Shown here: piece by piece, positions 1 through 29,296 of the stretch
How positions within the stretch are numbered: the stretch's first letter is position 1
Layout: each line of letters begins with the position of its first letter
Source: Elsinoe ampelina
Taxonomy: Eukaryota
Assembly (NCBI GenBank): GCA_010093995.1
Contig: ML992539.1
Location: forward strand, 1-40,173
DNA length: 40,173 nucleotides
Direction: 5' to 3'
The notes under the pieces: model-generated
Seen by the model: the letters and a program-made list of their open reading frames with translations, nothing else
Databases searched by the model: none
What the model was told of the DNA's origin: nothing
Program-made: the position numbers and the translations under genes

Positions 1-537
1 CCTCCACCTCCACCTCCCCCCCCCCCCCCCCCCCCTCCTCTCCCCCTCCTCCATCCGTCCCTCCCACGCCCTCCTCCCCTCCTCCTCCCTCTCCACCCAC
101 ACCCCCGCTGCCCTCCCCGGCGCCTCCCGCCTCAAATTCGCCAACGTCAACGTCAACTCCTCAATCTCGCTCGCGACAGCCTGCACCCTCCTCGCGAGCC
201 GGTGGTCAAACGCCTCCGTCTCTTGACCGACACCCACGCCACCCTGCCCCTCGCCATTCGCGTCGCCGAGGAGACGCGCCATGTCGTCCCCTTCGAGGCC
301 GTTGATGGAGATGTTGCCCTTGACTCCCGTGAAGGTGCGGGTGAGGAAGGATTGGACTTCTTCTTCGACGAGGCGGCGCATGGGGTCCGGGGTGGTCGGG
401 GAGGGGGCGAGAGGGTCGGGTGGGGCGGGGGGGAAGTGCAGGTCGATTTTTTGGCGGGCGAGGAGGGAGGCGCTGGAGATGAGGTGTTGGAGGTCCGAGG
501 GGGATTGGAGCTCGATTTTGCGGTGGGTTGTGTCCAT
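1..537 (-). CDS. MIS14: Kinetochore Mis12-complex subunit Mis14/Nsl1 (3' end runs off window)
   Basis: Absent from the ORF track because it has no stop in the window. ATG at 537 reads MDTTHRKIELQSPSDLQHLISSASLLARQKIDLHFPP...DPMRRLVEEEVQSFLTRTF...NISINGLEG...EAFDHRLARRVQAVASEIEELTLTLANLRREAP. This matches the fungal Mis14-like pattern (HRKIELQSP..DL, KIDLHFPP, SING, LRREAP). Confidence 0.85.
   Translation of the reverse strand, partial: MDTTHRKIELQSPSDLQHLISSASLLARQKIDLHFPPAPPDPLAPSPTTPDPMRRLVEEEVQSFLTRTFTGVKGNISINGLEGDDMARLLGDANGEGQGGVGVGQETEAFDHRLARRVQAVASEIEELTLTLANLRREAPGRAAGVWVEREEEGRRAWEGRMEEGERRGGGGGGRWRWR
16..35. repeat. Homopolymer C20 (G20 on the coding strand of Mis14)
   Basis: 20 consecutive C at 16-35, read directly. 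Confidence 0.95.
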
Positions 538-1126
538 TTCGGAATGCGTTGTAGGATTGAAGACTTGGGAGCGGCGAGGAGCTGGTATGCTGGTGATATT
601 CAGTTATTGCATGATGTGATTGAAGAGAGACTGGTTCTTGTGGTGCTGGCGTGAAGTTGGTGGACGTGCAGGACGTGTTTTGTTTAGACGCGGATCAAGC
701 CCGCCCGCCGCGGCTCCCGGGAGTGGTAGGGCTGAGCTAAAGTCGGCCGTCATGCGGGGTAGCGTTATCGGGACCTTGATGCTGGGGGCCCTCTTATCTC
801 ATAGACGGGCGGAATACGAGCATGAGCAAGTTCTGTCAAGCGCAATCAAGATGCGATCAAGTAGTACGGCCAGAGCTGTGCACCTTGTCAAGTTCTCAAG
901 TATCAAATTCAAAGTGGAGTATCTGTGCTATCCCATTGCCAATTGGTCCCCTCTGGAAGGCCGCCCTCCACACCATGTGTATGACCCACCGTACGCCATG
1001 ATCTCTCTGAGCTTGCGTAGAGAGCTTCGAGATTGTGCCATTAGAATCAATGTGAATCGGAAAGAAATCGTGCCATTGTGGAGTTCGGGAGTCGTGTTGT
1101 GTCATGTACATGTCGGCTGTGCCTCA

Positions 1127-1772
1127 TCACTTGGGAAGCAGAGCTTCGGCCTCTTCGTCGGTGAGAATAATGTCTTTGACCGGGTCTGGCTTGAGCTCCA
1201 AGTCCGAGGAGTCGTAGTCAATGTACGAAGGGAGGAAGATGTCTGGTCAGTGTCAGTATGCCCAACTTGCTCGAGGGTAGTGCTGCATACCCTGGTTCCA
1301 GTCGAAGCCCTGGGATGATTTGACGCAAGTTACCTACATAGAAATCAGGATCTGAGCATTTGAGTACCTGTATTGACTACTTACCAGCCTTGGAGGACCG
1401 TCTGGACCAGCCACGTTGACGACGGTGTACTCGGAGTGTGATAGGGAGGTGCCTTTGTCTCGTTAGCGACCAGTCGACCGGGATACTGGTTATGTTCCAA
1501 GACCACATACCCAGCAGTGAAGGCCTCCTTGTCCAATCCCTACTCTTCTTGCTTTCGCTCGACGACGCCATAGGCGGTGACGGAGCTGCCATACTCGGAG
1601 AAGCCGCCGACGGTGTGCGTGGAGAGTGAGCAGCTGAATAGCTCGCAAATGATGACGAAGCTGAATCTGAACTTGATGCCGCAGCAGATGAAGACGATGA
1701 TGCAATGCTGCTGCCGCCGTAGCTGCTATTGCGTGGACGTCGGCGTTTGGGGATTGCTATGGAGGATGACAT
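1127..1772 (-). CDS. Small conserved fungal hypothetical protein, 4 exons (~162 aa, Ser-rich N-terminus)
   Basis: Exons 1772-1511, 1452-1385, 1333-1291, 1242-1127. Introns GTATGT..AAG, GTAAGT..TAG, GTATGC..CAG, with GCTAAC/CTGAT/CTGAC branch sites. Spliced frame: ...RRPSLLGTSLSHSEYTVVNVAGPDGPPRLVTCVKSSQGFDWNQDIFLPSYIDYDSSDLELKPDPVKDIILTDEEAEALLPK*. I recall this pattern from uncharacterised Pezizomycotina proteins. Confidence 0.85.
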
Positions 1773-2412
1773 GGTCGGAAGTTAACGCCGAGGGAAGCCG
1801 AGCAGATGAATGGTCGATCGCAGCATGTGAAAGCTAGACAAAGGATATGTTACTCTGACAGTCCTGGAGAAGAGCAAATAGAGCAAGAGGTGAGAGTGGC
1901 TAATTGCAGTCGAGAATACCTGAGAACGACAGGTTGTCCATCTAGGTTCGGAAGATAGGCAAATGGCAGCAGATGACATGATGGGGAACCCCGAGTCACG
2001 TTCCCCAATTCAAGGTTTCATGACTCAGGGCACGCATCCATACAAGATACCGAAAAGGGAAGCGATTTGCCGATCTTCTGACTTCCACGACATGAGAGCA
2101 GCGTAGAAAGACCCTTAGTTCTTGAATAATTCATGACATTACAATCGGAGTAAATTCTGCTCCACCACGCGGTTATCTGAAATACAATGAACATATACAA
2201 GGTCTTTCCCCTCCACAATGAAATTGGACAACCAGGGTATCTCAAATCCAACTTAGAATAGAAGGGTAGGGATAATTTGAAGATCGTCCGTCAAGTTTGG
2301 TACGTGCGGTAGTGTGCTGTGTCCAGTCTAGCTAGGGTCGTGGTCGTAAGAATGCTGCGTGAGTGTTATAGTACAGTTGGGAAGTCGTTTCTAAAGCTGG
2401 TTGACTGATGCT

Positions 2413-4963: not shown

Positions 4964-6413
4964 CTTGTGTGGCTCTCAGAATGGTGTAGTGCCGTGCTCT
5001 TTCAATGGTCGTCGCACCTGTGCACAATGCACATGTGAGGGTGCGTTCCGGTGCTCAGACGGCACAGGGGTTTGCACGAAGCGCCGATAATGTCGGAAAG
5101 AGGTAATTGTAGTCTGAAAGCCGTCGGACTAAATCAAATTGGTTGTCTGCAACTAGGCGACTGGTATGGTATGGTCGGGTTCTGTCAAAGGAGGTTGCGA
5201 GGTACTTTGCTGTGGGAGAAGGTCCCAATCGGTAAGCGCAACGTGGGTTGCGAGCTTGGAAAGTCAAAAGAGCAGTAAAGGAAGGTGTGAACGTCGCAGG
5301 CGAAAGGTGAGAGCAGAGAGCAAACGGTTGGGTAGCCACGAGAAACGGGCGACTTGGAATGCTGCAGAGAATTGGCAGATGGACGAAGAAAGGAGAGAAG
5401 TGGTGGTGATAGTCGAGAGGGGCCTTGGGGATCTGAAACGACTCCTGCATGTACCCAAAGTGGCCAGAGCTCATCGGTTCTGTCTCACTGGTCGTGCTGG
5501 GTTCTGCTTCCCATTGGTCAGGATTTTACTTCATTGTTCCTGGGGGCTCTTTTTATTGATTCGATTACGGGAGTGCCTCTCTTGTCTATTTTGACGTGGA
5601 ACTCCCCTGTCACTCCTGCTCTTGCCTTTCCGGAATCAATTGCTGAGATCGAAGCATGAGGAATGTCATGCCCAAGTGGTATGGCAACCAACGGACATCC
5701 CGAGCACATGCCCAACAACTGCAAGATCGTTTCGTGACGACGCCGTTGCCCAGGTACACCAGGTTCCTGCGAGCTACTGAGGAAGCGGGGATGCCGGGCA
5801 ATTTTGTAGCTCTCCCATTGTAAGACCTGCGTGAGCTTGTAGCAAAGCCATGGCAGTCTTTGACGACATCCAGGCACAATGGTCGGTCTTTGACCAAGCT
5901 GTGTAAGGTATCCCAAAGCAACAATTCGTGACAGGTTAGGGTGTGCAGCATCCGACTCGGGCAGGATTCTCCCTAGCTTCAACGGGTGGCCAATTTTGTA
6001 CAGCTTCCAAGACGGATCTTGCATGCTTTGTCCTTGCAACTGTTCGAGCGGCGAAATACGTTTTATTATTCTCTGTTATTGCACAACTCTGTAGATGTTC
6101 CTCTGCGATTGGCTTGAGATCTGTCTGCCAGCATCAGACGCCCGGGCGTCCGACAATATATTGGCATAGCGGCTTCAGCCCTATACTGTTACTTAAACTC
6201 AGATGAGCTATGACCACCATACTCTCGTGCCTGTTTGATCACCTTCGAGAACAATGTTGGTCGCTCCAAATAGATGAAGCTCATCTATGGCTGACGCAAG
6301 CTTTCCCGGGCCCCACTAGGACCACATCCGAGGTATGTATAAGTTACCGGCATGTAAAGGAAGAGAGACGACAATGATTTTCTGTATGTAAGGTCGAATC
6401 ATAGCTCATTCAT

Positions 6414-6997
6414 CTACAGAAGGCCGGCTTTCTTCTTCTCAGCGAATTCCTTCAATGGCCGAAGATGGAGAGGAATCTCCTGGCCCAACCAAGTTGCCCT
6501 CTGCGTATGATCCCGATAGTCGTCTCCAGTGTTTGGATGCACCAGAGCCGACAAGGGACCTCGGTGAATGACCAGCCATGCGATGAAAGCGCCAAATTGA
6601 ACAGGGGTAAAGACATTAACCTCGAACATCCCTATTGGATGAGGTCCAATTGGTTTGTCCCACACCTTGTATATCCTCAACTCTGGGAACTCTCGTCGTA
6701 TGCGTTCCCATAGCTCTGTGGCAAATTTCGTTTCATACTCGGAGTTTTGTTGGAAGTAGATATGGATGTCGAATCCACCACGTATGCCGTTCGTGATGGG
6801 TCCCACGAAGCTGGTATATGCCTCGCTCTGCTTAGCGGCTGGTGGATTCACGTATGATTTGCCATCATCGGCTAAGTCGCTGTAATTCTAATCAGCGTAG
6901 TCTTAGGCATTGATGTCTTGACACACCTTGGAAGAGGTTCCAGATTCTCGTAGCCCTGAAGAGGCGAATCATAGGTGTAGAGAAGTGGGTCGGCCAT
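6414..6997 (-). CDS. DOPA 4,5-dioxygenase family protein (fungal DODA type), 2 exons, ~178 aa
   Basis: Exon 1 6997-6927 (MADPLLYTYDSPLQGYENLEPLP), 47-nt intron GTGTGT..CAG, exon 2 6879-6414. Motifs FDIHIYF, PIGPHP..MFEV, LSALVHPNTG..RDH...ATWLG are typical of the DOPA_dioxygen family. Confidence 0.9.
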
Positions 6998-7359
6998 TGG
7001 ATATGTTTGTTGTTCTATTTGAGGGAGAAAGATGGCACTGTATTGTTAGACAATGTAGGACTTGTGAGTTGAATGATGTTTGAAGGGGAAAATAACATGC
7101 TCGAAATATACTTCCTTCTTGACCGGAACATTAAACGTAGCTTTTTACTTCTGCTGTTTCTAAGCAGCGCGGAATTGACGCGCCAGAGCTATTGTTGCAG
7201 CTCTCCTCGAAGCACCATGCGCTTCTATATTGGTAATCCGTGACTACATCGAAACCTGGACCACAGGCTATGAATACCCATGATGGCTCCGACAGAAGCA
7301 TGTAAGATGTTGGCCAAGGTAGAATGAGGGATACAGTGGACCAGTCCGTGGGAATCAAG

Positions 7360-7398: not shown

Positions 7399-7470
7399 GG
7401 CTAAATTGCTCTACTCACATTTCCGCCCCCACCACATCTTCACGTCTCTTCATACACTCTCGATATTTTT

Positions 7471-8981: not shown

Positions 8982-9208
8982 ATATATTCATCATGTCTAA
9001 TCATCAGCTTGCCATCTCTTCATGCACATGCCGTGCTTGCTTGCGGTGCCAATTGAGAGGCTGCCGGCCCGTCAGTCCTCGCCCTATGGCTGGATACGTG
9101 TTTGTTCCCCCGGCATTGCTGCACGTTTGACTTCTGCTCCCCATCGACTGGTGCGGTCGTTACGGGTTTTGCATTTTCATCTTCCAAACCCCAAAAGTCA
9201 CAACCCAC

Positions 9209-9723
9209 TCACTTCTTCTCCCCCTTCCCCTTCTTCGTCTTCTTCCGCTTACTCCTGTCCCTCTTCTTCAACGCCGTCATGCCCGCCTTACACGTCTCCG
9301 CATACCTCGTATAAAACGCCTCCAGATCATCCGGTTGCACCACGGTGCTCAGCCTGACCTTATCTCTATTCTTCTTCTTGCTCTCCTTGTCGATTGTACT
9401 TTTGCCATCTGTGGCTCGTATAATAATCGGGAGAGGGTTGGGTGGGTGCGTGTCCCAGAGTGGATCGTCGGCGACTTTGACCGGGTCGGGTTGCTCGAGT
9501 GTGTCATGGGAGACTGGGCGGTCAGTGATGGGAACATATAAGGGGGAAAGGGGATCGAACGTCGTTTTTGAGTCAGCCATACGCTGCCGTGGCCTTCTTG
9601 TGTGCGGGAGGAGAGGAGGGCGGAGAGCTTCGTGAAGAACTGGGATCGTCAGCCATTGAGGCGTCGCGTGGAAGTGTCGACATATAGGCTCACCTCATCG
9701 TGGCTCAAGTGGCCTTGCGCCAT
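9209..9723 (-). CDS. SRP14: Signal recognition particle 14 kDa subunit, 3 exons, ~137 aa
   Basis: Exons 9723-9694, 9639-9561, 9513-9209. Protein MAQGHLSHDEFFTKLSALLSSRTQEGHGSVWLTQKRL...IIIRATDGK...KVRLSTVVQPDDLEAFYTRYAETCKAGMTALKKRDRSKRKK carries the canonical SRP14 motifs. Confidence 0.95.
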
Positions 9724-10047
9724 TCTTGAGAGTGCTATGGAGGACAGGAGCGGGGCAGCGGTGGAGTGTGCGGCGGTGGTGGGAGGTGTGAAGTCAGTGG
9801 TTGGTTAGCGGGGCCAAGATTTCGCGGTGCGGTGGGGGTTCGAGGGCAAGTTTTGCCGACCATTTTTGACATTTCACCTCACAAGCTGCATTTTAGTCCT
9901 CCATCTCCTCCGGTGCCACTGAAATCTAGATATGGACATTTTCTCCGCCGTCGTTTACCAATCAATCAAGGCTAAGTACACTTTACGTAAGTACCTCCCT
10001 CCAGCGGTTACCCTCGCCATCCCACAGCCCGAGGACCCCTCTGCCCC

Positions 10048-10065
10048 GCTATCGGACCCCGCCGA
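10048..10065. promoter_or_regulatory. UaY/Ppr1-type Zn2Cys6 site TCGG-N6-CCGA with overlapping GATA (AreA-type) site
   Basis: TCGG(10052-10055)-ACCCCG-CCGA(10062-10065), about 120 bp upstream of the allantoicase ATG. CGATAG on the minus strand at 10049-10054. Confidence 0.7.
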
Positions 10066-10181
10066 CATCTGTTTGACATCGCGTGCCCCTACAACTCTAT
10101 TCCAGTCATCTTTTTTCCCATTCAACAATTGCTCTCCCAATCCTTCTCTCCCACCCTCACAACTCCTCCAGCACACCCACC

Positions 10182-11338
10182 ATGGCCATCCCCATCATTT
10201 CCTCAGAACCAATTCCCCCCTCCTCCACCGCCCCTATCTCCTCCCCAGTCCCCGTCCCAGTCGACCAAATCTCCACCGTCTTCGGCAGCGACAGCATCGG
10301 TAGCCCCCTCCCATCCCCACCCTCATCCACACCTCTCTAACTCCCATCTCAGACCTCATCTCCAAACCCCTCGGCTCCCGCATCCTCGGCTTCTCAGACG
10401 AATGGTTCGCCGAAGCCGCCAACCTCACCGTCCCCTCGGCCCCCGTCCACAAACCCGGCGTCTTCACCTACGCCGGGGCATGGTACGACGGATGGGAAAC
10501 GCGGCGGCACAACACCGAGCCCTTCGACTGGGTGGTATTCCGCCTCGGGGTCTCCTCCGGCAAGGTGAAAGGTGTAGAAATCGACACTGCGTTTTTCAAC
10601 GGGAACCACGCGCCGGAAGTGGTGGTGGAAGGGTGTTTCATCTCGGACGAGCAAGAGGGGGAGACGTTGAAGAAGGATTTCGCTGGGTGGGAGACGATTT
10701 TGGAGAAGCAGGAGTGTGGGCCGAGTCAAAGGCATGCGTGGTTGGTGAGGCAGGAGGAGGGGAGGCAGTATACCCATGTGAGGCTGTGTATGTTTCCCGA
10801 TGGAGGGATTGCGAGGTTTAGGTTGTATGGGACTGTGGTGCCGGTGTTGCCGCAGGATGTCGGGGAGGTGTTTGATTTGGCGGCGACGGTGAATGGGGGT
10901 GTGGCGGTCAAGTGCTCGGATCAGCATTTTGGGACGAAGGATAATTTGCTGTTGCCGGGGAGGGGAGTGGATATGGGGGATGGGTGGGAGACGAAAAGGA
11001 GTAGAGGGGTGCATGTTGATTGGGTGATTATCAAGTTGGGTCTGCCTGGGGTTATTGAGAAGGTGGTGGTGGACACGGCGCATTTTAGGGGCAACTTTCC
11101 ACAAAAGGTACAAGTGTTTGCTGCGAAGCCGACGGCGGACGGTAAAGTGCCAGAACATGAGGATCATGAAAAGTGGGTGCAGATCCTGGCGCCGAGTAAG
11201 ACTGGGCCGGATAAAGAGCATGAGTATGGCCAGGCGGAGTTGGTGGAGATCAAAGATACAACGTATGCATATGTCAAGCTGGTAATCATGCCCGATGGAG
11301 GCGTCAAGCGAATAAGAGTGTTTGGTAGACGCGGATAG
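10182..11338 (+). CDS. DAL2: Allantoicase, 2 exons, ~367 aa
   Basis: Exon 1 10182-10299, 53-nt intron GTAGCC..CTAAC..CAG, exon 2 10353-11338. Two allantoicase repeats: SDEWFAEAANL, YDGWETRRHN, IDTAFFNGNH, PDGGIARFRLYG, then SDQHFG, MGDGWETKRSR, VDTAHFRGNFP, PDGGVKRIRVFG. Confidence 0.96.
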
Positions 11339-11976
11339 ATATAGAATAGAAGGTAGAAAAGCGTTCAATGATAGACAGATGACCTTGTTCGGCTCCCGTC
11401 GCCTTGGGTGCCATAAACGAAGTCGAACCCAGTGAGCGGTCGTGAATGGAAGAAAGGATCGTCAGAGTATCTTGTCCCGTCTGTTGCATAGCCTACACTG
11501 CGAAGCCCACGCCGACCCACTGATGAGGCCCTGAAAGCATGTCAGACGTCATATTCCAGATGTCAATAACGAAGGTAGGCAAAGAGGTCAAAGGCTCAAA
11601 GCGATGAGGCCCACTCTTGCCGAAATGTCCGAAAAAGCCGGGGCCCCTCGCGAAGAGTGCGGGGGACTGTCAACATCACCTCCTTTCCTTCTCTCCTCCT
11701 CCACAATCTACACTTCACCTTGTTTTCAATGATCGCCTTCACTTTATCAATTCGCTCGTCTGTCGGACTGCTCCGAACGCCTGAATTGATTTGGATGCAT
11801 CCCTACCTGTCATGTCTATGTAAACTACCACAAATTGCATGAGGGACTAAATCCACAACATGGTACACAGGTGGTAGTACCCTCCCATTCTGCTCATTCT
11901 TCGTCTCCCTCCACCCAATCATGATGATACGTCGCTATAGAACACCCAAAATCCGCGAGACCCTCTCAAGTCACCA

Positions 11977-12504
11977 CTAGAAAAACTCCTCAAACTCCCC
12001 AATCGCCCCATCAAAAGCCGGCCCCAACGGCGCAATCAAAGCCTCAGCAAAAGGCTGCAATCCCACCGGCACCCTCCCCACCACCGCCCTGCCAAACGCA
12101 TCCGACGCCTCCTTCTCCGCCTTCAGATTCACCAACGCCACCACCTGCGTCAACGTTCGCCTAAATACCGGCTTCTTCCTCACCACCGTGTTCAGAGTAC
12201 TCTGCACCGTCGCGACGAGATCCTGCGTCGGCCCTACGAGCGTCAGGGCTTCGGCGTCGGTGAGGTTGGCGGAGGATTTGGCGGTGAGAGTGCCTTTTTT
12301 GATGGAGATGAGGAGGTCGGTGGATTGCTTCAGGATGGTGAGGATGGTGGGGAGGTCGCCGGTGAAGGAGGCGACGGTGGAGTTGAAGGTGGTGGCGGAG
12401 CGGGTGACGGATTTGGTGGCGGAAAGGATGGAAGCGCCGTCGGCGGAGGTCAAAGCAGGTATGAGGGTGAGAAGGGAGAGGAGAGGTAGGGTTGGGAACT
12501 TCAT
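11977..12504 (-). CDS. Secreted HsbA-like (hydrophobic surface-binding / cell-wall galactomannoprotein family) protein, 175 aa
   Basis: Signal peptide MKFPTLPLLSLLTLIPALTSA followed by amphipathic helices with HsbA-like patterns (S.NLTDAEAL.L, VVRKKPVF, ASDAFG.AVVGRVP, FDGAIGEF). Confidence 0.85.
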   Translation of the reverse strand: MKFPTLPLLSLLTLIPALTSADGASILSATKSVTRSATTFNSTVASFTGDLPTILTILKQSTDLLISIKKGTLTAKSSANLTDAEALTLVGPTQDLVATVQSTLNTVVRKKPVFRRTLTQVVALVNLKAEKEASDAFGRAVVGRVPVGLQPFAEALIAPLGPAFDGAIGEFEEFF

Positions 12505-13120
12505 GGTGGGTTGTTGGTGAGTGCTTGTGTGCTGGGATTGAGAGCTGTTTAACTCGTTCGAGTTGATCGTCGACCATTGGTGTTCTTATGTAGACGATGT
12601 AAAGGACATCCAGACCAGGTCTGTCGTCTGTCACATGTCAAGTCCTCGGCTTGGTGGTCTTTCCTCAGTATCAAGTTATGCAGCAACAAGATCACCAGAG
12701 AGGTCCGACGAACCTTACCATCCCAGGAAGCGATCAGGCTTGTCACCTGCGGCGTACCTGACCGACCCAAACCATGCTGTCATCTTCTGCTGTCGTACCT
12801 GCCGGTTTCCCCGCATGTATGCGGGACAAGCTTCGTGGTTTGCTCAATTAAGCTTTCCAGTATTGTCTTCGTGCACCTGGTCAGGCCTCGGCAACAACTG
12901 TAGTCGACGGAGAAAGAAGAGGGGGCGATCAGCGTCTTTTCGGAAATTTGGACAGAGTTGCGCAGCCATGCTATGATCACAGCCACCGAAGACGAGACAC
13001 AATCCGAACTCTTGGACATGTGACAAGGCCATAACACGGCTCGTGCATTACTACCGGAGGAACCTATCCTGTGGTCCCTCTCAACGTCGTAACCCCATAA
13101 TCAGTCGTCCCAGATCCATC

Positions 13121-16353: not shown

Positions 16354-16412
16354 CGTGTCGAATCTGATGCTGAACAATGAAATTCTAGTAGGAGCTGTAG
16401 TCTATTGATGAT

Positions 16413-17033: not shown

Positions 17034-18584
17034 GAAGATATTTCTAGATCATGGATGCCAAACGCAGCATGACAAGACGAAGGCGTGGCATTTACGCTCG
17101 CAGATTTGTGTAGGCCGGAGGAGCAGCTGGTCGCGCTAGTCCTGCCGGCCACGAGGAAGACCCCTCATCACGCTCGCTATCGCAATCTGTATCGCTGCGA
17201 TACTCTGATCCTGTTGCTGACTCCTCGGCCACATCACACCGATAGCTTTCCTGCGCGGCATCCACTTCTGGACTAGATGGGCCAGTTGACCCGCCGTTCA
17301 CCGCTTGCACGCAAAGTGTGACGGGCACCGTCAACTTGACGGTTCCCCCTTGCTAACACAATATCTCACCACATGCTTACCGCGTCGAGCAGTAGAATTG
17401 AGAACATTGTGGATTCTCACAAAACTTGCCTAATTGGGCTTAGTACGGTCTCTGATTCTCGCCAACTCCTCTTCTTGCATTCTCCAAAATGCGACAAAAT
17501 CGAGAAAATGTGGCCAGGAGCTTTGAAGTCGGTACAGCCTAGCTTGTAGTAAGGACGAGTCGTGGTGTATTCAGGTCTGGGGGAGTGCCAGAAGATGAGA
17601 GCTTGAGCTACGCTTCTAGACACGGTACGTCAGTGCTCCACAGAGAGAGTCAGCAGCCGACGGAACAAGTGCCGCCATAGAGATACTGGTATGCCGTGGC
17701 AGTCTTGCCAATGTGACAGCCTACTGTACGAGGTGGCGGCGTGATCGTGGCGCCCGCGGTAATTCTTCTGACCAGGATACTTGCTCAAGCATCGCAACTT
17801 GGTATGGGCTAAGAGAAAGGCATGGCCAGCCAAGATGGTCTGGGCATCCCAAAGATCTGGATTCGTGCAGATTGGACCTCTTGGAGTCTTGGTGGGCAAC
17901 TCGTGATGCTGCGCCCAAAGTCAAATACTTTGCCCGATAATTTGGAGGACAGCAGAGATGGTTTCGACGTTGAAGTGAAACGGAGCCGCACGGAAAGTAG
18001 AGTGACGGCAGGATGCCGCTTGACATTGGGCGCCTTGCAACTTCTGCAGGTCCGGGACGGAAAGAAAGGAGAGCGAAAAGACGTGGTCGAAACCAAGATT
18101 GATCCACGATGATCACCTTCCAACCACAGCCAGGCGATGCTCTGTTGATTCCTGATCTTCCAGAACAAGTGGAGAAGTGAGAGAAAAGGCGGAGCAAACA
18201 ACCCTGCCTGAAAGGGCTCTTCTCGCAGATCCAGACCTGTCAATTTGTCGATTTTCGGAGCAGCTCCTGTTGTCCTTGAGGTCAGCATCGATATGCTGTC
18301 TATTACGCTTTCCGTTGGTGATGTGCAATTCCGTTTCTCGGCCTTGAATCGGAGAAAAGGCAGATGAAGGAGGCAGGAGCAGACAGGGCATTGTGCTTGG
18401 CAGCGAAAAACTCTGGAACCAGCCCAAACACTGTCGACGGGGCAGGAAAAAAGTCTCACCTTCAATCTCTGTGACCTTAAACAACACGAGAGGCCATCCT
18501 TGATGACACCCACATCGGACATTATTCGTACGATTCTCAACAGCCACGCCAAGCGCTGACAGTATCACAAACATTTGACGACAC

Positions 18585-18628
18585 CTCGCTCTCGCTCTCG
18601 CTGACCCGGACTCGCTGACCCGGACTCG
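18585..18628. repeat. Short tandem repeat: (CTCGCT)x3 merging into 14-bp duplication CTCGCTGACCCGGA x2
   Basis: CTCGCT at 18585, 18591 and 18597; 14-mer at 18597-18610 and 18611-18624; partial copy to 18628. Confidence 0.85.
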
Positions 18629-19004
18629 TGGCAACCTTCAAGCCCACTCAAGATTGTCCAAGCGACCCCTTGTTTCCATCAAGGCAGTAAAAGCCATTCA
18701 CATCCCTGCTTCAACACCAGCAAGACCTCTCCGCAACCCTGCAGCTCGTTCTCGGCCACGCCGCCGAGTTTCACACCACGTCCCGCCGCGCCCTTGGCGC
18801 CACTACATATCCTGGCCCTATGTCGACCGGACTATGGCTGAGTACCCCGCCAGACGACGTGCCCAGTAATCGAAGCTTGGTGAGAAGTCCTGCATTCTTC
18901 CGCCAAGGCTCTCATTTGCCTCCAGTTGTGATTGCTTGATGTGTGGTGTATCGTCCCCACCATGTGGTTTGTAGATTGCCTTTGTCTTGTCTCGAGGGCA
19001 CGAG

Positions 19005-19010
19005 TATAAA
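19005..19010 (+). promoter_or_regulatory. TATA box of carbonic anhydrase gene
   Basis: TATAAA about 90 bp upstream of the ATG at 19096, followed by a CT/CA-rich leader. Confidence 0.55.
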
Positions 19011-19095
19011 GACTGTCCTGTATCCTGGTAGGGCTCTCATCCTCGTACCCACAAATTCCCTCCTCCTACACATCTCCCCCATCACATCACCCACC

Positions 19096-19932
19096 ATGCC
19101 ATCCCTCACCACCTTCGCGGCCCTCCTCCCCGCCGCCCTCGCCTGCTCCGACCACCTCAACTTCCAACGCACACCCAAGCTCATCGGCCGACAAGTCTCG
19201 GACAACCGCACCACCCGCATCCCCCAAGACGCCGACTGGGCCTACGAAGCCTCCTTCAACTGGGGACGCATCAACCCAGAATACGAACTCTGCCAGACGG
19301 GCACGCAACAATCCCCCATCGGCTTCTCCCTCAACCAAGGCCTATCCACCAACCACATCCCGGACTTCTCCAACGTCTCAGGCCTCTACACGGGCAACTT
19401 CTACAACTGGGGCTACGGGCCCGCATTCACCCTCCTCCACGACAAAGGCGTGTACGAAACCCTCCCCTCCGTCTCCTTCGACAACGAAACCGACTACCTC
19501 TCGGGCTGGCACGTCCACACCCCCGCCGACCACACCGTCGGCGGCGACAGGAGCAAAGCAGAGCTGCACTACGTCTTCACCGACGGGGGAGGGGACTACC
19601 GCGCCGTGGCGGCCATCCGCCTCGACGCGGGCGGACAGAACAACAGCTTCTTCGACGCCGTGCCCAAGCCGTTTATCGGTTTCAACGAGACGGATCAGCA
19701 GATGGAGGTCGATCTGCCGTTGCGCTTGCCCATCGAGGCCGTGGGCAATTTCACCGAGTTTTGGACGTACAGGGGCAGTTTGACCAGCCCGCCGTGTACG
19801 GAGGGAGTGAGGTTTTTCATGGCAAGGAATATCATGTTTGTGAGTGATGATCAGATGAGGGAGATTCTCAGGGTGGGCGCGTATTCGGCCAGGCAGGAGC
19901 AGGAGGTTTGGAGGCATGGGGTGAATGAGTAG
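19096..19932 (+). CDS. Secreted alpha-class carbonic anhydrase, 278 aa
   Basis: True start is CACC-ATG at 19096 (MPSLTTFAALLPAALAC, signal peptide). Motifs C.TGTQQSPI, Zn ligands WHVH...H and ELHYV, YRGSLTSPPCTEGVRF. Confidence 0.93.
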   Translation: MPSLTTFAALLPAALACSDHLNFQRTPKLIGRQVSDNRTTRIPQDADWAYEASFNWGRINPEYELCQTGTQQSPIGFSLNQGLSTNHIPDFSNVSGLYTGNFYNWGYGPAFTLLHDKGVYETLPSVSFDNETDYLSGWHVHTPADHTVGGDRSKAELHYVFTDGGGDYRAVAAIRLDAGGQNNSFFDAVPKPFIGFNETDQQMEVDLPLRLPIEAVGNFTEFWTYRGSLTSPPCTEGVRFFMARNIMFVSDDQMREILRVGAYSARQEQEVWRHGVNE

Positions 19933-20129
19933 CGGGTCAAAGGGTGGGAGAGGAGAGCGATGTTTATGGTAAGGGAGGGAGATGATGATCAATACGACGA
20001 CAGAATCATGTAGATGCTTTGTATCAGAAGTTTCATTTCTATTGGGAGCTTTCGTGAATAGTACGTGTCTGCTTCCATGCCCTGTCTTCCAAAGCATAAG
20101 TGCCTGTGCCCCCGGGGACTAAGTCTTCC

Positions 20130-22597: not shown

Positions 22598-22990
22598 CGT
22601 TGCGGATGTTGGCCGTGATCGGAGTAACTCTGGTAGTATGAACAGGCTGGAACTACCAGTCTTTTGTGCGATTGCTGATGAAGAGTTGGTAGTGAAGCTG
22701 GAATGAAGTGGAGAAGCTAAGCTTGTGTGTAAGTTTGGACGTGCTGCTGGTAGTACAGCTCGCAGGCAGCAGCTGGCGAAAATGCCAAGCATTCCCTCCC
22801 TGCACCAAGACCTACCTTTCATTGACTTCAATTTCGAGTCTGAATGAGTTTGCTAGGATCAGTTCATGTTTGCACGGACTCACTAACGAAGGATCGTCAG
22901 AGATGCTTGTTGAGTTTCTGTCGTGGTATCGTGATGCTCATAAGAAGCCTTCTTCTCACTGCACAGGTCCTGTACCAGCAGGAGACTACC

Positions 22991-24272
22991 TCAGCTCTTC
23001 TCCAAGAACTCCGTCATCATGTCAAATGCTTCACTCTGTGCCGTCTTGATCTTCTGATCAGCGTACTCGCCGACCACTGCGAAGCCTGTCACCTGTCAGC
23101 CATGTTCTCCTCTACAACAAAGCAACCATACCATGCGGCACACCCTCCCACACCTTCTCCTCCACCTGCACACCCTTCTCCTTCGCGAGCCCCGTCCCAT
23201 AATCCCTCACCTCATCTGTGAACAACCCATCCTCCCTGACCGCCACAATCCCCAGCTTTCCCCCCTCCTTCAACCCCGCAAAATCCTCCTTCCCAATCCC
23301 CGTCCCATGCGCCAACACCCCAGCCTTGATCCACGGGCCCCTCCCCACCATCCCCTCCTCACTCTTCACCGCCGCATCGAACCCCTCCCCTGCCTCTCCC
23401 TCCTTCTCACTCGGACTCGGCAATGCAGCACCCACATCCCTCGTGCCCGCCACCACATCATCCGGCAACTCACTCAACAACAACAAGATATACCTGCCCC
23501 CGAAACAATACCCGGCCCCGTACACCCCGCCCCCATACGCCACAGCATCAGCATACATCTCCTTGGCCGCCGCCACCACCTTTACCAACCTCGGCAGCAC
23601 AGTCGCAGGCGTATGTCTCGCCAACCACATATCGATCCTGAAACTCTTTGCCGTCTCCACGAAGCCGAGCTTGAGTCGCTCGATGAAGCTCGGGTTGGCG
23701 GCGGCGCCGGGCTCGCCTCCGTCGGGGGCCAGGTCGGAGGTGTCCAGCTTGGGGGCTGGGTCGCCGTTGAATTGGTCTGGCATGAGCACGACGTAGCCTT
23801 TTGTGGCCCATTGGTCGGCTTGGAGTTGGTTGTTGGTGGAGTGGATGCCGGTGCCGGGGGAGAGGAGGAGGAGGAGTTTGGCGGGTTGGGAGGGGTAGAA
23901 GGGGGGACAGGTGATGTAAGTTTCTATGCCCGAGAGGGTGGTGATTTCCTGTAGGAAATTAGGGGAGAAGGGGAGGTGAGGGAAGCGGGAGGACGGACGC
24001 CTTGGGGGGTGGAACCGGGAGCTAGGAGGTATTAGCTAATGGTTTGGACAGAGAGAGGCGGAGAGAAGTCATACGGCTTGGTCTGTCTGAGACGCAGTGT
24101 TCCTTCAAGAATCAGCATCAATCACGAATGTGGACCGGAGAAGGTGTACACCCATAGTAGGCTTCTGCCCCTCGTCGGCGCTCGTGGGCGCATCTGCCGT
24201 CTTTTGCTCTTGCGCATCGCTCTCCGGTGCTTTAGTAGCGACATCAATATCTTCGAGATCATCTGCTGCCAT
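22991..24272 (-). CDS. Dienelactone hydrolase family alpha/beta-hydrolase, 5 exons, ~361 aa
   Basis: Exons 24272-24150, 24102-24075, 24021-23999, 23948-23132, 23085-22991. MGEHCVSDRP, NNQLQADQWA..GYVVLMPDQF.GD, nucleophile GYCFGG, EDGLF, VPHGFAVVGEY. Confidence 0.9.
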
Positions 24273-24647
24273 TGTTGCGTTTGGTGCAGGTGAACGGTGT
24301 GGTGATTGAAATGAAACAAGTCAAGTTGACAGACGGCGGGGCTGTGAAGGAAACGCGTCAGGCCGAGGGGATCACCAGGACAGCTCAAGCTTTGGCATCA
24401 ACCACTCCTTGTCACAAGTCATGAACGTCAAAAATCATTAGATCTGCAATTCCGAAAGTCTGCCTGTCTAAAGTACATCATGGACGTAATGGTATGAAGA
24501 GTAAAGGTCCATCGAAAGGTCATTGCCGACCGTCAATCATCTACCGCTTTTTCAGTCCAGCGAGGTCATGAGAAAGCAAACCCGTCAATCACCCATGATC
24601 TCTGCCTTGCCTTTTCCCTTGTCCTCCTCCAATGGAGAATAAGGGTT

Positions 24648-25324
24648 CTACTCCTTCTGCTGCAGCTTCTGCGAGTATGACTCCTTCTTCTGCTTGGCCT
24701 GTCCGATAAACTCATCCTTCTTCTGTGCAGCCTCATCCTTCTTGGGTCCGAGCCAGTCGGCAGCGATCTGAAGAGCATCGCTGGCAATCCTCATCTCGGT
24801 GCTGATGATAGACAGGCCGAATGACCAGATACCTGGACCACGACCATTGCGCTTGACCGTCTTGTTGTACTCATCCTGCCAGGTGCTGAGGACGTAGTCC
24901 TTGCCGTCGAAAGCGAGCTGGACGGGCCAGAAAGCGTAGCCCTTGGCAGTACCGACGATGGTGTTGGTGTCCTCCTTGACGATGGGAAAACGGTTGTCGA
25001 CGCTGTTCAACACATTGTCGGCGAGAGAATCGGCCTTCTCAACGTATGGCTTTGCGTAGCTGTACGGGACACGGAGATGGGGCTCAATAGGCTTGCCGAT
25101 CTTGGTGTAGGCAGCGTCGGCGATCTCGATGGATTTGGCGCCGTACTGGTTGGACTTGACAGTATCAATTCCATCAGAGACGATGGGGTATGACTTGAGA
25201 TGCTTGACGTTGTTAGCACATTTAAGAGAGTGATGCAGAGAGATCATACCGAGAGGAACTGGCTTTTGGAGTCACCGTTAGTGAGCACCTGCGTTTGGCT
25301 CATCTTGTCTTCAGCGTGTGGCAT
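24648..25324 (-). CDS. CAP20: Perilipin-like lipid-droplet protein CAP20/MPL1, 2 coding exons
   Basis: Two in-frame ATGs (25324 MPHAEDK; 25303 MSQTQVLTNGD). Exon 1 ends at 25250, intron GTATGA..GCTAAC..AAG, exon 2 25202-24648. SQFLSHLKSYPIVSDGI..VKSNQYGAKSI, PYSYAKPYVEKADSLAD..L..VD.RFPIVKEDT, GKDYVLSTWQDEY. Confidence 0.9.
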
Positions 25325-25328
25325 GTGT

Positions 25329-25382
25329 CTGAGATACTGTCAGTGTTATACACGACTTGATAGCGATGAGTAGTAGACTGAC
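25329..25382 (-). other. Probable 5'-UTR intron of CAP20
   Basis: CAG|GTCAGT...ACTGAC...TCTCAG, 54 nt, ending 4 nt before the first in-frame ATG; size matches the other introns here. Confidence 0.6.
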
Positions 25383-26755
25383 CTGTGGAGGATGTGAATG
25401 TGAGATGTGTAGCTCTGAGGAATCGCCGGAAGCGATTGTGGACGAAGCTAGAGGAATGCCAATGAGCTCGGTTGCACTGACGATGAGGGATGATGAGCTG
25501 CAGGAATGTTGCAGCAGAAGGGTGGTGGTGTGGGAAAAAGCAATAGAAGTGGGTGCTGCAGCGGTCAAGGATAAAAAGTGAAGCAGGTACAATGGTGGCA
25601 GGTCAAGCTTATCTTGTGCGAAGAAACGATCCTTTACGCGCCATCGTTCCTTCCCACTCTACACAAGACGAGCACATGTCAAATGAGCCACACCGGTCCC
25701 ACTTCGCAGGCTGTCACTTTTTGTTGCAGGCTATCTCGCGGGCTGAGAATCAGGGAAAGCGGCCACGAGAGCACGAGCTGGCAGCACGAGGGACCAAGAG
25801 GAAGAGACACGCGAATTTGACATGTGAAAGTCCAAGGATGGCCGCTGTGACGTGAGGCGTTCTCGATCGAGCTCTGTGATTGGCGGTCCGGTTTGACGGG
25901 ACGAGGGCGTGGGGCGGGAAGGACGGGCTCGTTTCCGTTTATGGACGGGTGCTGCATCTCAACAACTGCATATTATTCCATCATATCGCGACGGCAGCCA
26001 TGATCCATCAGATGTTGTTGCCTTTGTGTGTGTCACTGCTGGCCGCCATCACGATATGAATGGTCAATTTTATCTGAGACACCAGTCGTTGTGGTCCGAA
26101 TGACTCGAGTAACAGACATGTGAACATGGCCTGAGAAGAATGGCAGAAACAGACCTGGCTGTCAATGTCAGAGCTGCATCCCACGCTATTCACCCCTGGA
26201 CAGGCGCGTCAGACAAGATCCAACGTCCAGCTTGCAGGATCTTCCAATGTGCCGAAAAGGATGGATGCTTGATCTGGTCCCGTATCGTTTCTGTCCTGAA
26301 TGTCATCTCGGTCATTGATGTCTGTCTCAAATCCTGCATCAATACCACGAGTTCTCGACATGAGGTGTGTGGACAGAAGCCTTCCCTCGGCAGGTCAGTC
26401 CATCTTCACATGCCATGTAGTCAAGTAGTTCACGCATCAGTAGTGGGTCTCAAATGTTGGTTGACCTGCAGCTGTGGAGCTTATATTCTAGGTTGTATTC
26501 GGTACACGGAACATGATCAGGGTTTTGAGGCCCGAAGCCATCCGCGCCATCTCGCTTGCCGCATCGCGACAATCGCGAGCGAGGCATGATTACTTGATAA
26601 CCACGGGTATCGCACACGGCTCTCATCATCTCGACTTGCGGCTGACGGCAAGTGTTCCCCGAGGCCTGGTTATTGCTGGTGGCTTGCATCGCCTGGACGC
26701 CTTGTCGGGATATCATTCATCGCTTCAGCTCGGATAGCGACAACTTCATCACCTC

Positions 26756-28957
26756 TCAACCACCTTCCTTCTCCTTCGCCTGCTGGCTTCTCTCCCAGAA
26801 CTCCAACCCCGCCGCGGCCAAGAAACACGGCACCTCCCCTCTCCCCTCGATCCAGAATTCCACCATATCTCTTATCTCTTGCGCGAACCTGGACCTTTCC
26901 CCGCCCGAGACCTTCATGGTCCCCTTCTCGCTGTCAAAAAGGATGAAGTTCTCCTCTTCCTCACCCGTCTCCGGATTGATCCCGGTTGGGTAGTACACTG
27001 GCGAGAGCTGCAGCTTGCCGTGCGGGAGGAACTTGACTGTCCAACCAAGTGTAGACGCGACGGCTTCTTGAAACTCGATCACTTTGCCCGACCAGATCTG
27101 GCGCAAGCGGAGTGTCTTCTTGTCTCGTTGTGCTAATTCAGCATCCTTCTCCTCGAGTTGTAGCTTCAAAGAGTCTACAACAGCGGCAGGCACAGAGGCA
27201 GGTGGAGGTGACCGGCCTTTGATCTGGGCTAGCAGAGCCTCATTCTCGGCCTGAAGCGTCTTGAGTGTTGAAGCTCGAATGGCCTGGAATTGAGCTGTTG
27301 GATTGTTCGAAAGCTCGAGCACTCTTGTCCGGCTGGACTCTCTCAGAGCGGCAAGCTGTGCGTTACTGGCCTTGAGATCGTTCGTCAAGGTGGCGTTCTT
27401 CGAGTCCAGCGACACAACAGCACCTTGTAGCTTTCGAAGCTTCCGTTGCAGTGTGCCCATAGCCTCGTTCTCTTCCGAGTCTGGGGCGGGCCGCTTCAGT
27501 GACGGCTGTGCAGGAGCCGGTGCAGGCTGTGCTTCAAGCTTGGTAAGCTGTGCGTGAAGTTCCGAGATCTCCTTCTTGTACTCGTCCACTAGAGCTTCAA
27601 GCTCTGCCGTCTTGGAGGTTGTGCCTTGATCTGCCCTGTCTGGATCGAACTCTGTCGTTTCGTCTTCGAGTGATTTGAGTTGAGCTCGTAAGTACTCGAC
27701 CTCTTTCACTGCGAGCATCCTCTGTCTTTCCAATCGCGCTCGAGCCTTTGCATCACCACTCGCGGTGCCGTCTCCACCCATGGTCTTCAGTCTCTTCAAC
27801 TCAGCTTGAAGAGTCGTCCGCTCCTGCTCCAAAGCATTGATAGCTTCATCCTTGACCGCCAACTCCGGCTGTATCTGTCCCATCTGTTCCACTAACTGCA
27901 GCTTCTCCATCCTCTCCTTGACAAACGCCCTCGCCATCTCTTCCGGGCTATCAAACGCCGCCTCCCCCTCCTGATTCTCCAAATATGTAGCCCAAGCTCT
28001 TCTCTCATCCTCCAACATTCTCCTCTTGATCTCACTCTCGCTCAACTCCCTCCTCACATCATCCAGCAACCCCAACTTTCCCTCCAAAACCCTCTTCTCC
28101 TCCTCCACAACCTCCACCGCCTTCCTCTCCCTCCTCAACCTCTTCACCTCCCCACTCATCTCCGCATTCACCTTCTCCAACCTCTTGATATGCCCCACCT
28201 GCTCCCCCAACTCCCTCTTCACCACCCCCAACGTCTCCTGATCCCCCGTCACAGCCTTCAACCTCAACACCTCCTGCTCCAACTCCCCCACCCTCTTCTC
28301 CCTCCCCTGCACCTCCTCCTTCAACCCCCTCACCGTCTCCCCCAACCCATCCCTCTCCCCCTCCGCCCTCTCCAACCTACTCTCCAACCCCTTCACCCTC
28401 CCCTCCACCTCCCTCACCCCCCGCTCCGCCTCCCTCCTCACCATCTCCACCTCCGTCCTCCCCTCCTCCACCTCCTCCTTCAACCCCCTGACCTCCTCCC
28501 CCCTCTCCCTAACCCTCCTCTCCAACTCCGCCCGTTCATTCGCCCCCCTCGTCTCCCGCTCTCCCATCTCCCTCCTCCCCTCCTCCAGCCTCCTCTCCGC
28601 CTGCGCCCTCCCCCTCTCCGCCTCCGCGGCCCGCTTCGCCTCAACCTCCACCCTCCGCTCCGCCTCCCGGATCTCGCACGCGAGCTTCTCGACTTGCATC
28701 GCGCGGTCTTGCTTCAGCGTGTCCAGCTCGTACTGCAGCGTGTTGAGTTGTGCGCGCAGGGTTTCGTTGTCGATTGTGCTTCGCGCCGGGACGGCGGAGG
28801 GGGCACCCGCGAGCGATTGGCGGAGTTTGCTGGTGGTGGCGTTGGCGGAGAGGGAGGTGCGGCGGGTGGAGGAGGCGAGGGGGAGGCGGGAGGGGTTCGA
28901 GGAGGTGTCCCCTGTGATGAGGTCGTAGGTCGGGAGTTGGTTGCGGGCGGCTGCCAT
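26756..28957 (-). CDS. MAD1: Spindle assembly checkpoint protein Mad1, single exon, ~733 aa
   Basis: First ATG at 28957 (MAAARNQLPTYDLITG). Long coiled coil, FDSPEEMARA, RARLERQRMLAVKEVEYLRAQL, Mad2-interaction motif RVLELSNNP, RL(R)QIW..K..EFQEAVASTLGW, C-terminal EVPCFLAAAGLEFWE. Confidence 0.95.
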   Translation of the reverse strand: MAAARNQLPTYDLITGDTSSNPSRLPLASSTRRTSLSANATTSKLRQSLAGAPSAVPARSTIDNETLRAQLNTLQYELDTLKQDRAMQVEKLACEIREAERRVEVEAKRAAEAERGRAQAERRLEEGRREMGERETRGANERAELERRVRERGEEVRGLKEEVEEGRTEVEMVRREAERGVREVEGRVKGLESRLERAEGERDGLGETVRGLKEEVQGREKRVGELEQEVLRLKAVTGDQETLGVVKRELGEQVGHIKRLEKVNAEMSGEVKRLRRERKAVEVVEEEKRVLEGKLGLLDDVRRELSESEIKRRMLEDERRAWATYLENQEGEAAFDSPEEMARAFVKERMEKLQLVEQMGQIQPELAVKDEAINALEQERTTLQAELKRLKTMGGDGTASGDAKARARLERQRMLAVKEVEYLRAQLKSLEDETTEFDPDRADQGTTSKTAELEALVDEYKKEISELHAQLTKLEAQPAPAPAQPSLKRPAPDSEENEAMGTLQRKLRKLQGAVVSLDSKNATLTNDLKASNAQLAALRESSRTRVLELSNNPTAQFQAIRASTLKTLQAENEALLAQIKGRSPPPASVPAAVVDSLKLQLEEKDAELAQRDKKTLRLRQIWSGKVIEFQEAVASTLGWTVKFLPHGKLQLSPVYYPTGINPETGEEEENFILFDSEKGTMKVSGGERSRFAQEIRDMVEFWIEGRGEVPCFLAAAGLEFWERSQQAKEKEGG

Positions 28958-29164
28958 TGTTTGGGGTTCAGGAGTGGTCAACAGAGGAGTGTGGATGAAT
29001 TCTTGAGTCAAGGAGTGAGATTTGTCGGCGGCATCGTCGAATGTGAAAATTGGGTGTGCGCTGTGGATGCGTCGACGTGTTTGTTGATTCGAAGGTGAAG
29101 CTTTGGACTTTTGCGGAGTTTGAGGGCGGAGGTGCAGAGCCGCATGCGGATCGTGGAGCGTTAG

Positions 29165-29172
29165 CACGTGAC
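29165..29172 (-). promoter_or_regulatory. bHLH/Cbf1-type site GTCACGTG upstream of MAD1
   Basis: CACGTGAC on + strand, about 210 bp upstream of the MAD1 ATG in a 340-bp intergenic gap. Confidence 0.35.
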
Positions 29173-29296
29173 CTGTTCTGGCGGGGCCACAGCAGATGAC
29201 TGGATCACGTCAACGCCGACATGGGATGGCAGAGGATTCAATAGAGTGCTGTATCATTCATATTGTCGACTTTATGTACACATTCCTCTTTGTCAT

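Follow-up and report, generated by a model that had tools for sequence, protein, structure and literature searches.

Strand-skew flips inside genes of Elsinoë ampelina: probably an amplified fungal C-to-G gradient and not replication origins

Seven abrupt reversals of strand composition lie in a 40,173-nucleotide stretch of the Elsinoë ampelina genome (GenBank assembly GCA_010093995.1, contig ML992539.1, positions 1 to 40,173 of the forward strand; hereafter the window). At each of them, inside genes such as Mis14, allantoicase and MAD1, a strong excess of C on the + strand gives way to a strong excess of G within about 150-300 nt, in DNA with an overall G+C content of 52-53%. An earlier note on this DNA had read these flips as candidate fixed replication origins or as a focal asymmetric mutator, and had named as a rival a transcription-linked gradient, restricted to some genes, from C at the 5' end to G at the 3' end. 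It is this rival that the evidence favours: the flips are probably an extreme, lineage-amplified and gene-specific form of the intragenic 5'-C/3'-G skew gradient of fungi, and not origins. The flips are anchored to genes, the signal is carried by silent sites and introns, the two arms meeting at a flip mirror each other, and amino-acid changes in MAD1 run in the direction of any base to G. Some genes of this fungus bear a G+C-rich island of about 1-1.7 kb that extends from the promoter or 5' untranslated region (UTR) onwards and spans either a whole short gene or, in MAD1, the first 1.5 kb or so.

The feature to which we relate the flips was described by McLean & Tirosh 2011 (PMC3315797), who, testing each gene by shuffling, reported that fungal genes are, as genome averages, C-biased at the 5' end and G-biased at the 3' end, that the bias reaches promoters and UTRs and affects both four-fold degenerate sites and amino acids, and that its correlation with expression is weak. 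One part of Fujimori et al. 2005 (PMC555766) describes a C>G skew centred on the transcription start site (TSS) in plants and fungi. The window genes share with the McLean & Tirosh gradient the 5'-C/3'-G order, the reach into promoter, 5' UTR and 3' UTR, the effect on four-fold sites and amino-acid usage, a flat positive AT skew of the coding strand, a loose tie to expression and variation by gene and species. Unlike those averages, single genes here reach skews of 0.6-0.87 with a sharp switch and a local G+C peak, reverse their two-fold codon choice, carry homopolymer and G-quadruplex-type runs and show visible protein rewriting; in MAD1, moreover, the G-rich arm directly follows the 5' arm and does not lie at the stop codon. 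Myriangiales are not among the species listed in that paper (PMC3315797), and for Elsinoë or Pezizomycotina a literature search turned up no description other than that one. In PMC7403616 the term GC skew stands for GC-biased substitution, a different matter. We see in the flips a striking variant, amplified in this lineage, of a fungal feature that is known but unexplained.

Position and reality of the flips

Taken as minima of the cumulative G minus C count, the flips fall at 294, 9409, 10474, 12237, 19536-19686, 23666 and 28739. All seven inversions of the earlier note are thus present, with minima within about 65 nt of its intervals, and Pfam bears out the gene names and strands that it had assigned. 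Amplitude is given as GC skew in the flanking 300-nt windows on the + strand; we relied on window skews instead of the prominence of the cumulative minima, which is a poor statistic (shuffles reach 180 over 40 kb). Over 200 mononucleotide shuffles, the most skewed 200-nt window had a mean |skew| of 0.36, and none went beyond 0.46. G+C content at the flips is 0.60-0.71, against about 0.50 elsewhere. The seven units follow, each with the position of the ATG and of the flip, the genomic distance between the two, the skew on either side of the flip and the counts of C and G at four-fold sites of its arms. The exon structures of allantoicase, the hydrolase and a perilipin-like neighbour come from RNA joints and GT..AG borders.

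1..700, minus strand: Mis14 unit (Pfam), cut by the window start; ATG 537, flip 294, distance 243 nt; 3' arm 1-294, G-rich on the coding strand, 5' arm 295-700, C-rich on the coding strand; skew -0.59 to +0.54; four-fold sites C40/G5 in the 5' arm, G32/C8 in the 3' arm.
9100..9855, minus strand: SRP14 unit; inferred ATG 9723, inferred introns 9640-9693 and 9514-9560, flip 9409, distance 314 nt; skew -0.33 to +0.33; four-fold sites C22/G6 in the 5' arm, G16/C4 in the 3' arm. The identity comes from Pfam; the model, itself not Pfam-checked, was inferred from GT..AG borders and an open joined frame.
9856..11541, plus strand: allantoicase unit (Pfam); RNA contig 10112-11541, ATG 10182, flip 10474, distance 292 nt, stop 11338; skew -0.66 to +0.58; four-fold sites C43/G1 in the 5' arm, G81/C19 in the 3' arm.
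11665..12605, minus strand: HsbA unit (Pfam); coding sequence (CDS) 11980-12507, flip 12237, distance 270 nt; RNA contigs start at 11713 and 11733; skew -0.49 to +0.61 (the latter at 12301-12600); four-fold sites C53/G3 in the 5' arm, G36/C3 in the 3' arm.
18404..20100, plus strand: alpha-carbonic anhydrase unit (Pfam); RNA contig 18494-19997, ATG 19096, broad flip 19536-19686, distance 440-590 nt, stop 19932; skew -0.53 to +0.45; four-fold sites C71/G13 in the 5' arm, G19/C17 in the 3' arm, the weakest 3' arm of the seven.
22785..24371, minus strand: dienelactone-hydrolase-like unit (Pfam); ATG 24272, flip 23666, distance 606 nt; introns 23086-23131, 23949-23998, 24022-24074 and 24103-24149; skew -0.70 to +0.54; four-fold sites C54/G11 in the 5' arm, G65/C12 in the 3' arm.
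27800..29252, minus strand: MAD1 skew island; ATG 28957, flip 28739, distance 218 nt; 5' arm 28740-29252, 3' arm 27800-28739; skew -0.87 (at 28201-28500) to +0.54; four-fold sites C39/G9 in the 5' arm, G82/C7 in the 3' arm.

An assembly artefact was ruled out. Independent spliced RNA contigs from two runs match flips 3-6 with 0-8 differing letters, and flip 7, in MAD1, is spanned by a DNA contig of a related organism at about 91% identity. The RNA contigs were recognised by their GT..AG joints; they are unstranded, so that no TSS, antisense transcription or expression ranking can be taken from them.

All seven strong flips lie inside coding sequence and inside transcripts, and none is intergenic. 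It had been noted that the switch sits at a different relative position in each CDS, and this holds, but measured in absolute terms the start codon is always 218-606 nt away. By this restricted distance within transcripts, the origin reading fails a refuting condition set in the earlier note itself. Stretches 150-650 nt past a putative start codon make up about 30% of the region, which puts the chance of seven hits in seven at about 2e-4, an estimate for which the interval was picked after the data had been seen and an earlier SRP14 start was used. Six weaker flips accompany the seven strong ones, which fall within 29 kb at spacings of 1.1-9.1 kb, and the skew fades within 0.3-1.3 kb of a flip. 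Long neighbours free of comparable skew, another observation of the earlier note, are found in GCN1, the RasGAP gene and Sld2, whose identities Pfam also bears out. A unit with C at its 5' end and G at its 3' end reads the same after reverse complementation; it therefore yields a C-to-G jump whatever the orientation of the gene, and G-to-C jumps between units, so that flips independent of orientation are just what a gene-bound pattern predicts.

The reverse switches, from G to C, lie between units at 9855, 11474-11665, 12605, 18403, 22784, 24371, 26173-26530 and 29252. The one at 9855, which separates the divergent SRP14 and allantoicase genes, matches the flips in sharpness (+0.33 to -0.51 within 300 nt). 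Five borders (700, 12605, 18403, 20100 and 24371) are one-sided: the skew is strong towards the unit and weak beyond it. The maxima at 11474-11665, 18403, 22784, 24371 and 26173-26530 lie about 30-115 nt from RNA-contig ends (11541, 11713/11733, 18494, 22897, 24461/24462 and 26604). Where strong segments abut with a gap of at most 250 nt, C-then-G pairs occur seven times and G-then-C pairs three times.

Silent sites, introns and the rewriting of MAD1

The bias is clearest where the protein is indifferent to the base. At four-fold sites the pooled 5' arms hold A44 C322 G48 T20 (74% C) and the 3' arms A39 C70 G331 T43 (69% G), compared with A41 C45 G53 T43 in MAD1 beyond 900 nt; the corresponding skews are -0.74 and +0.65, and in each of the seven genes C is the commoner of the two in the 5' arm and G in the 3' arm. 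Two-fold codons behave in the same way: NNR codons go from A61/G20 in the 5' arms to A26/G238 in the 3' arms and NNY codons from C123/T10 to C53/T112, and the preferred codons change from CTC to TTG for Leu, from CGC to AGG for Arg and from TCC to AGT for Ser. The two arms are mirror images, with C favoured and G avoided in the first and G favoured and C avoided in the second. Skew at codon positions 1 and 2 is 0.00 and -0.48 in the 5' arms and +0.59 and +0.19 in the 3' arms, against a background of +0.16 and -0.28 in other reading frames of the window. The bias is thus strongest at silent sites, which excludes protein-level selection as its cause and is the opposite of the loss of skew at synonymous and intronic sites that had been named as a possible refutation.

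Non-coding DNA follows. The skew does cross introns and UTRs, as had been claimed, amounting to -0.40 over 2151 nt of non-coding sequence in the 5' arms and +0.29 over 977 nt in the 3' arms. Allantoicase intron 10300-10352 has 29 C and 3 G among 53 nt; the three introns in the 5' arm of the hydrolase have skews of -0.73, -0.52 and -0.09, two of them being C-rich, and the one in its 3' arm is G-rich at +0.55. Translational selection was ruled out on the ground that introns follow the local skew.

Cytosine deamination, which the earlier note had invoked, is not supported either. C-to-T deamination would raise T, and T is the rarest or nearly the rarest base at four-fold sites (5% in the 5' arms, 9% in the 3' arms), where G+C reaches about 85%. 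A further part of the original description, that the flip runs from C(A)-rich to G(T)-rich, stands for G and C and fails for A and T over all bases: coding-strand AT skew averages about +0.10 in the 5' arms and +0.12 in the 3' arms, so that over all bases AT skew depends on how the gene is oriented and is indifferent to the side of the flip, and the choice between A and T flips only at third codon positions. Of the 15 G-quadruplex-type runs 14 fall in arms; in 5' arms they occupy the template strand and in 3' arms the coding strand. They fit an R-loop geometry but follow from the skew and are not independent evidence.

MAD1 provides a direction for the substitutions. Its G-rich arm, 27800-28739, has a coding strand with 52% G and 9% C, and the distal CDS (26759-27799) is nearly without skew. 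Residues 74-373, which this arm encodes, align without a gap to 12 orthologues. An insertion or repeat expansion as the source of the tract was ruled out by this gap-free alignment of 300 residues; the arm arose by substitution. Compared with the majority of five outgroups, the arm holds 57 unambiguous single-step replacements, among them A>G 25, C>G 8, T>G 6 and C>A 5, and the net change in G is +33 in the arm and -2 in the rest of the protein. In the Elsinoë group 12-14 Gly were gained in the arm and none lost. Protein divergence is 0.47 in the arm against 0.33 elsewhere, and the five outgroup proteins lie at 0.11-0.33 in both parts. Only five usable polarised amino-acid changes fall in the 5' arm of MAD1. 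Among the 40 listed of 1329 differences between the window and aligned runs, those in the allantoicase 3' arm are mixed (e.g., T>C 6, G>A 4) and unusable for polarising substitutions.

The same arm shows how the skew is distributed among relatives. At the protein level the DNA is closest to Elsinoë fawcettii (79%), E. australis (73%), Sphaceloma murrayae (69%) and Myriangium duriaei (55%), which marks it as Elsinoë-like and places it in the Myriangiales (Dothideomycetes). The skew implied by the residues at codon positions 1 and 2 of the arm is 0.54-0.58 in the window and in four Elsinoë-group proteins, 0.44 in Myriangium, 0.40 in one further relative and 0.16-0.23 in Aureobasidium, Neodothiora, Baudoinia, Plenodomus and one further Dothideomycete. 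Judged from these proteins, Elsinoë and Sphaceloma have the trait in full and Myriangium has it in intermediate form, and Aureobasidium, Baudoinia and Plenodomus are without it. Conservation in relatives, which had been proposed as a check, is found as well: the position of the MAD1 flip is kept with the gene across the Elsinoë group. The protein of Cladosporium halotolerans (P0032), a distant Dothideomycete, has an implied skew of 0.44 and nine Gly gains in the same 300 residues, and a similar drift may have arisen there independently.

Nucleotide comparisons with other ascomycetes give the amplitude. At four-fold sites of the MAD1 arm, skew is +0.84 and G+C 0.88 here, compared with -0.41 to +0.58 and 0.34-0.74 in 65 orthologous metagenome loci. 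The mean profile of 35 orthologous MAD1 loci from other ascomycetes follows the same course with about one quarter of the amplitude: in bins starting at +300 to +750 their mean skew is +0.17 to +0.27, against +0.76 to +0.88 in the window. Windows of 300 nt with |skew| of at least 0.6 make up 2.8% of 399 here and 0.3% of 2545 in 46 non-redundant ascomycete loci. Very strong local skews occur sporadically in other ascomycetes too; in two metagenome contigs, 300-nt windows just downstream of MAD1 orthologues reach -0.8 (L030, about 5401-5700; L058, about 5301-5700).

The arm also leaves a mark on annotation. The stored MAD1 protein (P0006) has 467 residues, 64% of a 733-residue open frame (26759-28957, minus strand) that aligns end to end with the 741-residue protein of E. 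fawcettii, and the low-complexity G-rich arm is apparently where the gene model was cut. RNA contigs break there as well, and many of their loose ends are C/T-rich, which suggests similar tracts elsewhere in the transcriptome.

Mechanism and competing explanations

How could one gradient produce two opposite arms? We infer that a single substitution process would drive any base to G, acting on opposite strands in the two halves of a unit: from the promoter to about 0.4-1.3 kb downstream it would act on the template strand and make the coding strand C-rich, and beyond that point it would act on the coding strand and make it G-rich. Downstream, the exposed single strand could be the non-template strand of sense transcription; upstream, the exposure might come from promoter-proximal antisense transcription or antisense R-loops. 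Lesions on the exposed strand, such as base loss or deaminated bases, would escape transcription-coupled repair and be bypassed by insertion of C, giving a drift to G; Rev1-type lesion bypass that inserts C is known from yeast. G-rich RNA would in turn stabilise the R-loop, and such self-reinforcement might run away, producing sharp borders and affecting some genes only. R-loops with abasic-site bypass are the molecular cause that we would favour by inference.

Known R-loop systems offer a partial parallel. Ginno et al. are said to have found in 2012 that mammalian GC-skewed CpG-island promoters form R-loops. Such islands resemble those of the window in being G+C-rich, about 1-2 kb long and marked by a C-to-G switch, a likeness which for the window is known from composition alone. 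They differ in that their switch coincides with the TSS and their RNA is rich in G from the outset, whereas sense transcripts in the window first cross a C-rich arm of 0.4-1.3 kb that includes conserved CDS and a sense-spliced intron. A divergent promoter within the gene at the flip, of the mammalian CpG-island type, was rejected as the main TSS: the 5' arms carry conserved coding sequence, a sense-spliced intron and RNA-contig coverage. In plants, part of one study places antisense R-loops around the TSS and sense R-loops in gene bodies (PMC8327920), and the layout given in that part is the geometry that the proposed mechanism needs.

A stronger version of this mechanism, which we put forward only tentatively and would sooner doubt than defend, is that the Elsinoë-group islands are runaway skew islands, in which a self-reinforcing, strand-specific drive from any base to G overrides codon preference and purifying selection, likely via R-loops. 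The displaced strand of each R-loop would gain G and make the next R-loop steadier, with sense hybrids downstream and antisense hybrids near the promoter; the drive would rewrite proteins such as MAD1 and set sharp, bistable borders.

Several observations weigh against the gene-bound gradient or its proposed cause. Sense transcription alone would give only the G-rich arm, so that the C-rich arm would need antisense transcription or some other promoter-proximal asymmetry, and a bidirectional process with the flip at its centre would mirror the arms equally well. In carbonic anhydrase the 13 usable amino-acid changes of the 5' arm have a net C of -4 and show no drift toward C. Skew in UTRs and introns falls short of that at four-fold sites, leaving some scope for selection. 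The agreement of unit borders with RNA-contig ends is a weak hint, as such ends reveal neither transcript end nor strand. Many genes of the window are without the pattern (the 5' end of GCN1, RasGAP, Sld2, DUF6594 and others), the perilipin-like gene, which has the deepest contigs, shows only a weak version of it, and the mid-gene position of the G-rich arm of MAD1 departs from the published 3'-end pattern.

Meiotic break hotspots are, in our view, an unlikely source of the flips. Breaks would form in nucleosome-free regions at the ends of units or inside genes, error-prone fill-in of the resected 3' tails would turn damaged bases to G, and the G-to-C switch would be the hotspot centre. Part of the work of Hinch et al. 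2023 (PMC7615360) describes human hotspots whose 2-kb flanks carry C>G, A>G and C>A mutations with strong strand asymmetry and with off-centre peaks at 700-800 bp, which are ascribed to translesion synthesis. As far as that part goes, the two cases share the kilobase scale, a sign change at the centre and a richness in A>G and C>G, and the human spectrum resembles the changes inferred for MAD1 (A>G, C>G and C>A). In addition, promoters and terminators are where the G-to-C switches lie, the islands are rich in G+C and confined to particular genes, and both flanks are strongly skewed at 9855, 11474-11665 and 29252. A break-centred process should mark both flanks, however, and at the five one-sided borders only the flank inside the unit is strongly skewed; the strongest arm, that of MAD1 at 27800-28739, lies 0.5-1.45 kb from its promoter border with the wrong sign, so that an extra mid-gene hotspot would be needed; abutting segments form C-then-G pairs more often than G-then-C pairs; and GC-biased conversion is contradicted by the codon data discussed below. 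The sign change expected at a break is G-to-C and not C-to-G, a polarity argument that is our own reading of resection geometry and is not stated in PMC7615360. Unlike hotspot mutations, the skew in the window is a fixed composition, built up over the divergence of the genus and bounded by transcription units.

We give slightly less credence to selection on the RNA, by which transcripts would be kept poor in G at first and poor in C later on, be it to pace RNA polymerase II under a shortage of cytidine triphosphate (CTP) or to keep the mRNA unstructured. The CTP idea was published by McLean & Tirosh as an adaptive hypothesis, both arms do lie inside transcribed sequence, and skew is stronger at four-fold sites than in UTRs and introns. 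Yet conserved residues of MAD1 have been replaced, 12-14 new Gly have entered a coiled coil and the arm diverges faster, costs that suggest a drive and not a benefit. The C-rich arm, moreover, reaches about 100-330 nt upstream of the ATG (some 690 nt in carbonic anhydrase), into what is likely promoter DNA; only some genes are affected, the gene with the deepest contigs having little skew; and we know no reason why the need should be far greater in the Elsinoë group than in other Dothideomycetes.

A fixed bidirectional origin at each flip, with damage to the exposed lagging-strand template generating the skew on each side, is highly improbable. Its polarity fits for G and C at all seven sites (C>G to the left, G>C to the right), the silent-site compositions of the arms mirror each other and the flips are independent of gene orientation; the last point is trivial for a 5'-C/3'-G unit. 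Fungal origins lie tens of kb apart and eukaryotic replication skews are of the order of 0.01-0.1. The window instead has seven strong flips 1.1-9.1 kb apart in 29 kb, and six weaker ones besides, its skew is gone after 0.3-1.3 kb where it should last to a terminus, and the termini that would be required are as sharp as the origins and located at gene borders. All seven flips lie in CDS, 218-606 nt past the ATG, and the position of the flip is conserved with the gene across the Elsinoë group. The skew jumps of bacterial origins and mammalian skew domains have the same polarity and mirror-image sides as those described here, but they extend over tens to hundreds of kb and not about 1 kb, and the amplitude here is about ten times larger or more; unlike them, the jumps in the window are anchored to coding sequences and have sharp reverse switches. 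The origin half of the original proposal is therefore not supported, and the words focal asymmetric mutator are still compatible with a gene-bound gradient.

GC-biased gene conversion alone, with the skew as a by-product of amino-acid composition, is scarcely credible: it would account for a four-fold G+C of 0.83-0.85 in the arms, compared with 0.34-0.65 in 46 of 50 bins of other reading frames, and the coiled coil of MAD1 is positively skewed at baseline in every orthologue, but conversion would pick G and C everywhere, and NNR codons in 5' arms prefer A and NNY codons in 3' arms prefer T, with four-fold sites and introns also carrying the skew.

Individual genes and wider meaning

Two neighbours of the seven units carry partial versions of the pattern.

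24400..25650, minus strand: perilipin-like gene with the same polarity at low amplitude and without a G+C peak; flip at 24880.
29254..29575, minus strand: 3' end of GCN1, with the coding strand G-rich over the last 300 nt or so.

GCN1, a gene of 7.9 kb, has no C-rich arm at its 5' end. The RNA contigs of the perilipin-like gene are the deepest by far (word depth about 7400-8000 in one run), and its weak gradient hints that expression level does not set the amplitude, contig depth being a poor measure of expression.

Some of the seven genes have peculiarities of their own. Mis14 contains a run of 20 C at 16-35 on the + strand (20 G on the coding strand), which lies within the open reading frame (ORF) and encodes a Gly run; a 20-nt homopolymer in a CDS is prone to slippage and sequencing error. 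In SRP14 (9212-9723, minus strand) the first exon apparently has 10 codons and is followed by two short introns (54 and 47 nt), and the start of the longest ORF, 9580, lies inside the second exon and out of frame. The nearest named relatives of the carbonic anhydrase (19096-19929, plus strand) are proteins from Sphaceloma murrayae (86%) and one labelled Gnomoniopsis smithogilvyi, a Sordariomycete (77%), and among the matches listed the E. fawcettii protein is just 50% identical to that of the window. At the protein level, these matches point to patchy distribution, a paralogue, gene transfer or contamination.

There are two practical consequences. Transcript assemblies break at the low-complexity arms, where gene models also seem to be cut short, that of MAD1 at 467 residues being an example, and a scan for origins that relies on skew could be misled by the islands.

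Since 2005-2011 there has been no settled account of why fungal genes carry a 5'-C/3'-G skew and why plant and fungal start sites carry a C skew. In most species only a faint signal is left in the average; here single genes show it legibly, it can be dated along a lineage and it is seen altering a protein, so that work on one organism could discriminate between the hypotheses. If the islands are runaway, the lineage would offer a natural model, high in amplitude, of the GC skew that in fungal and plant genes is still unexplained.

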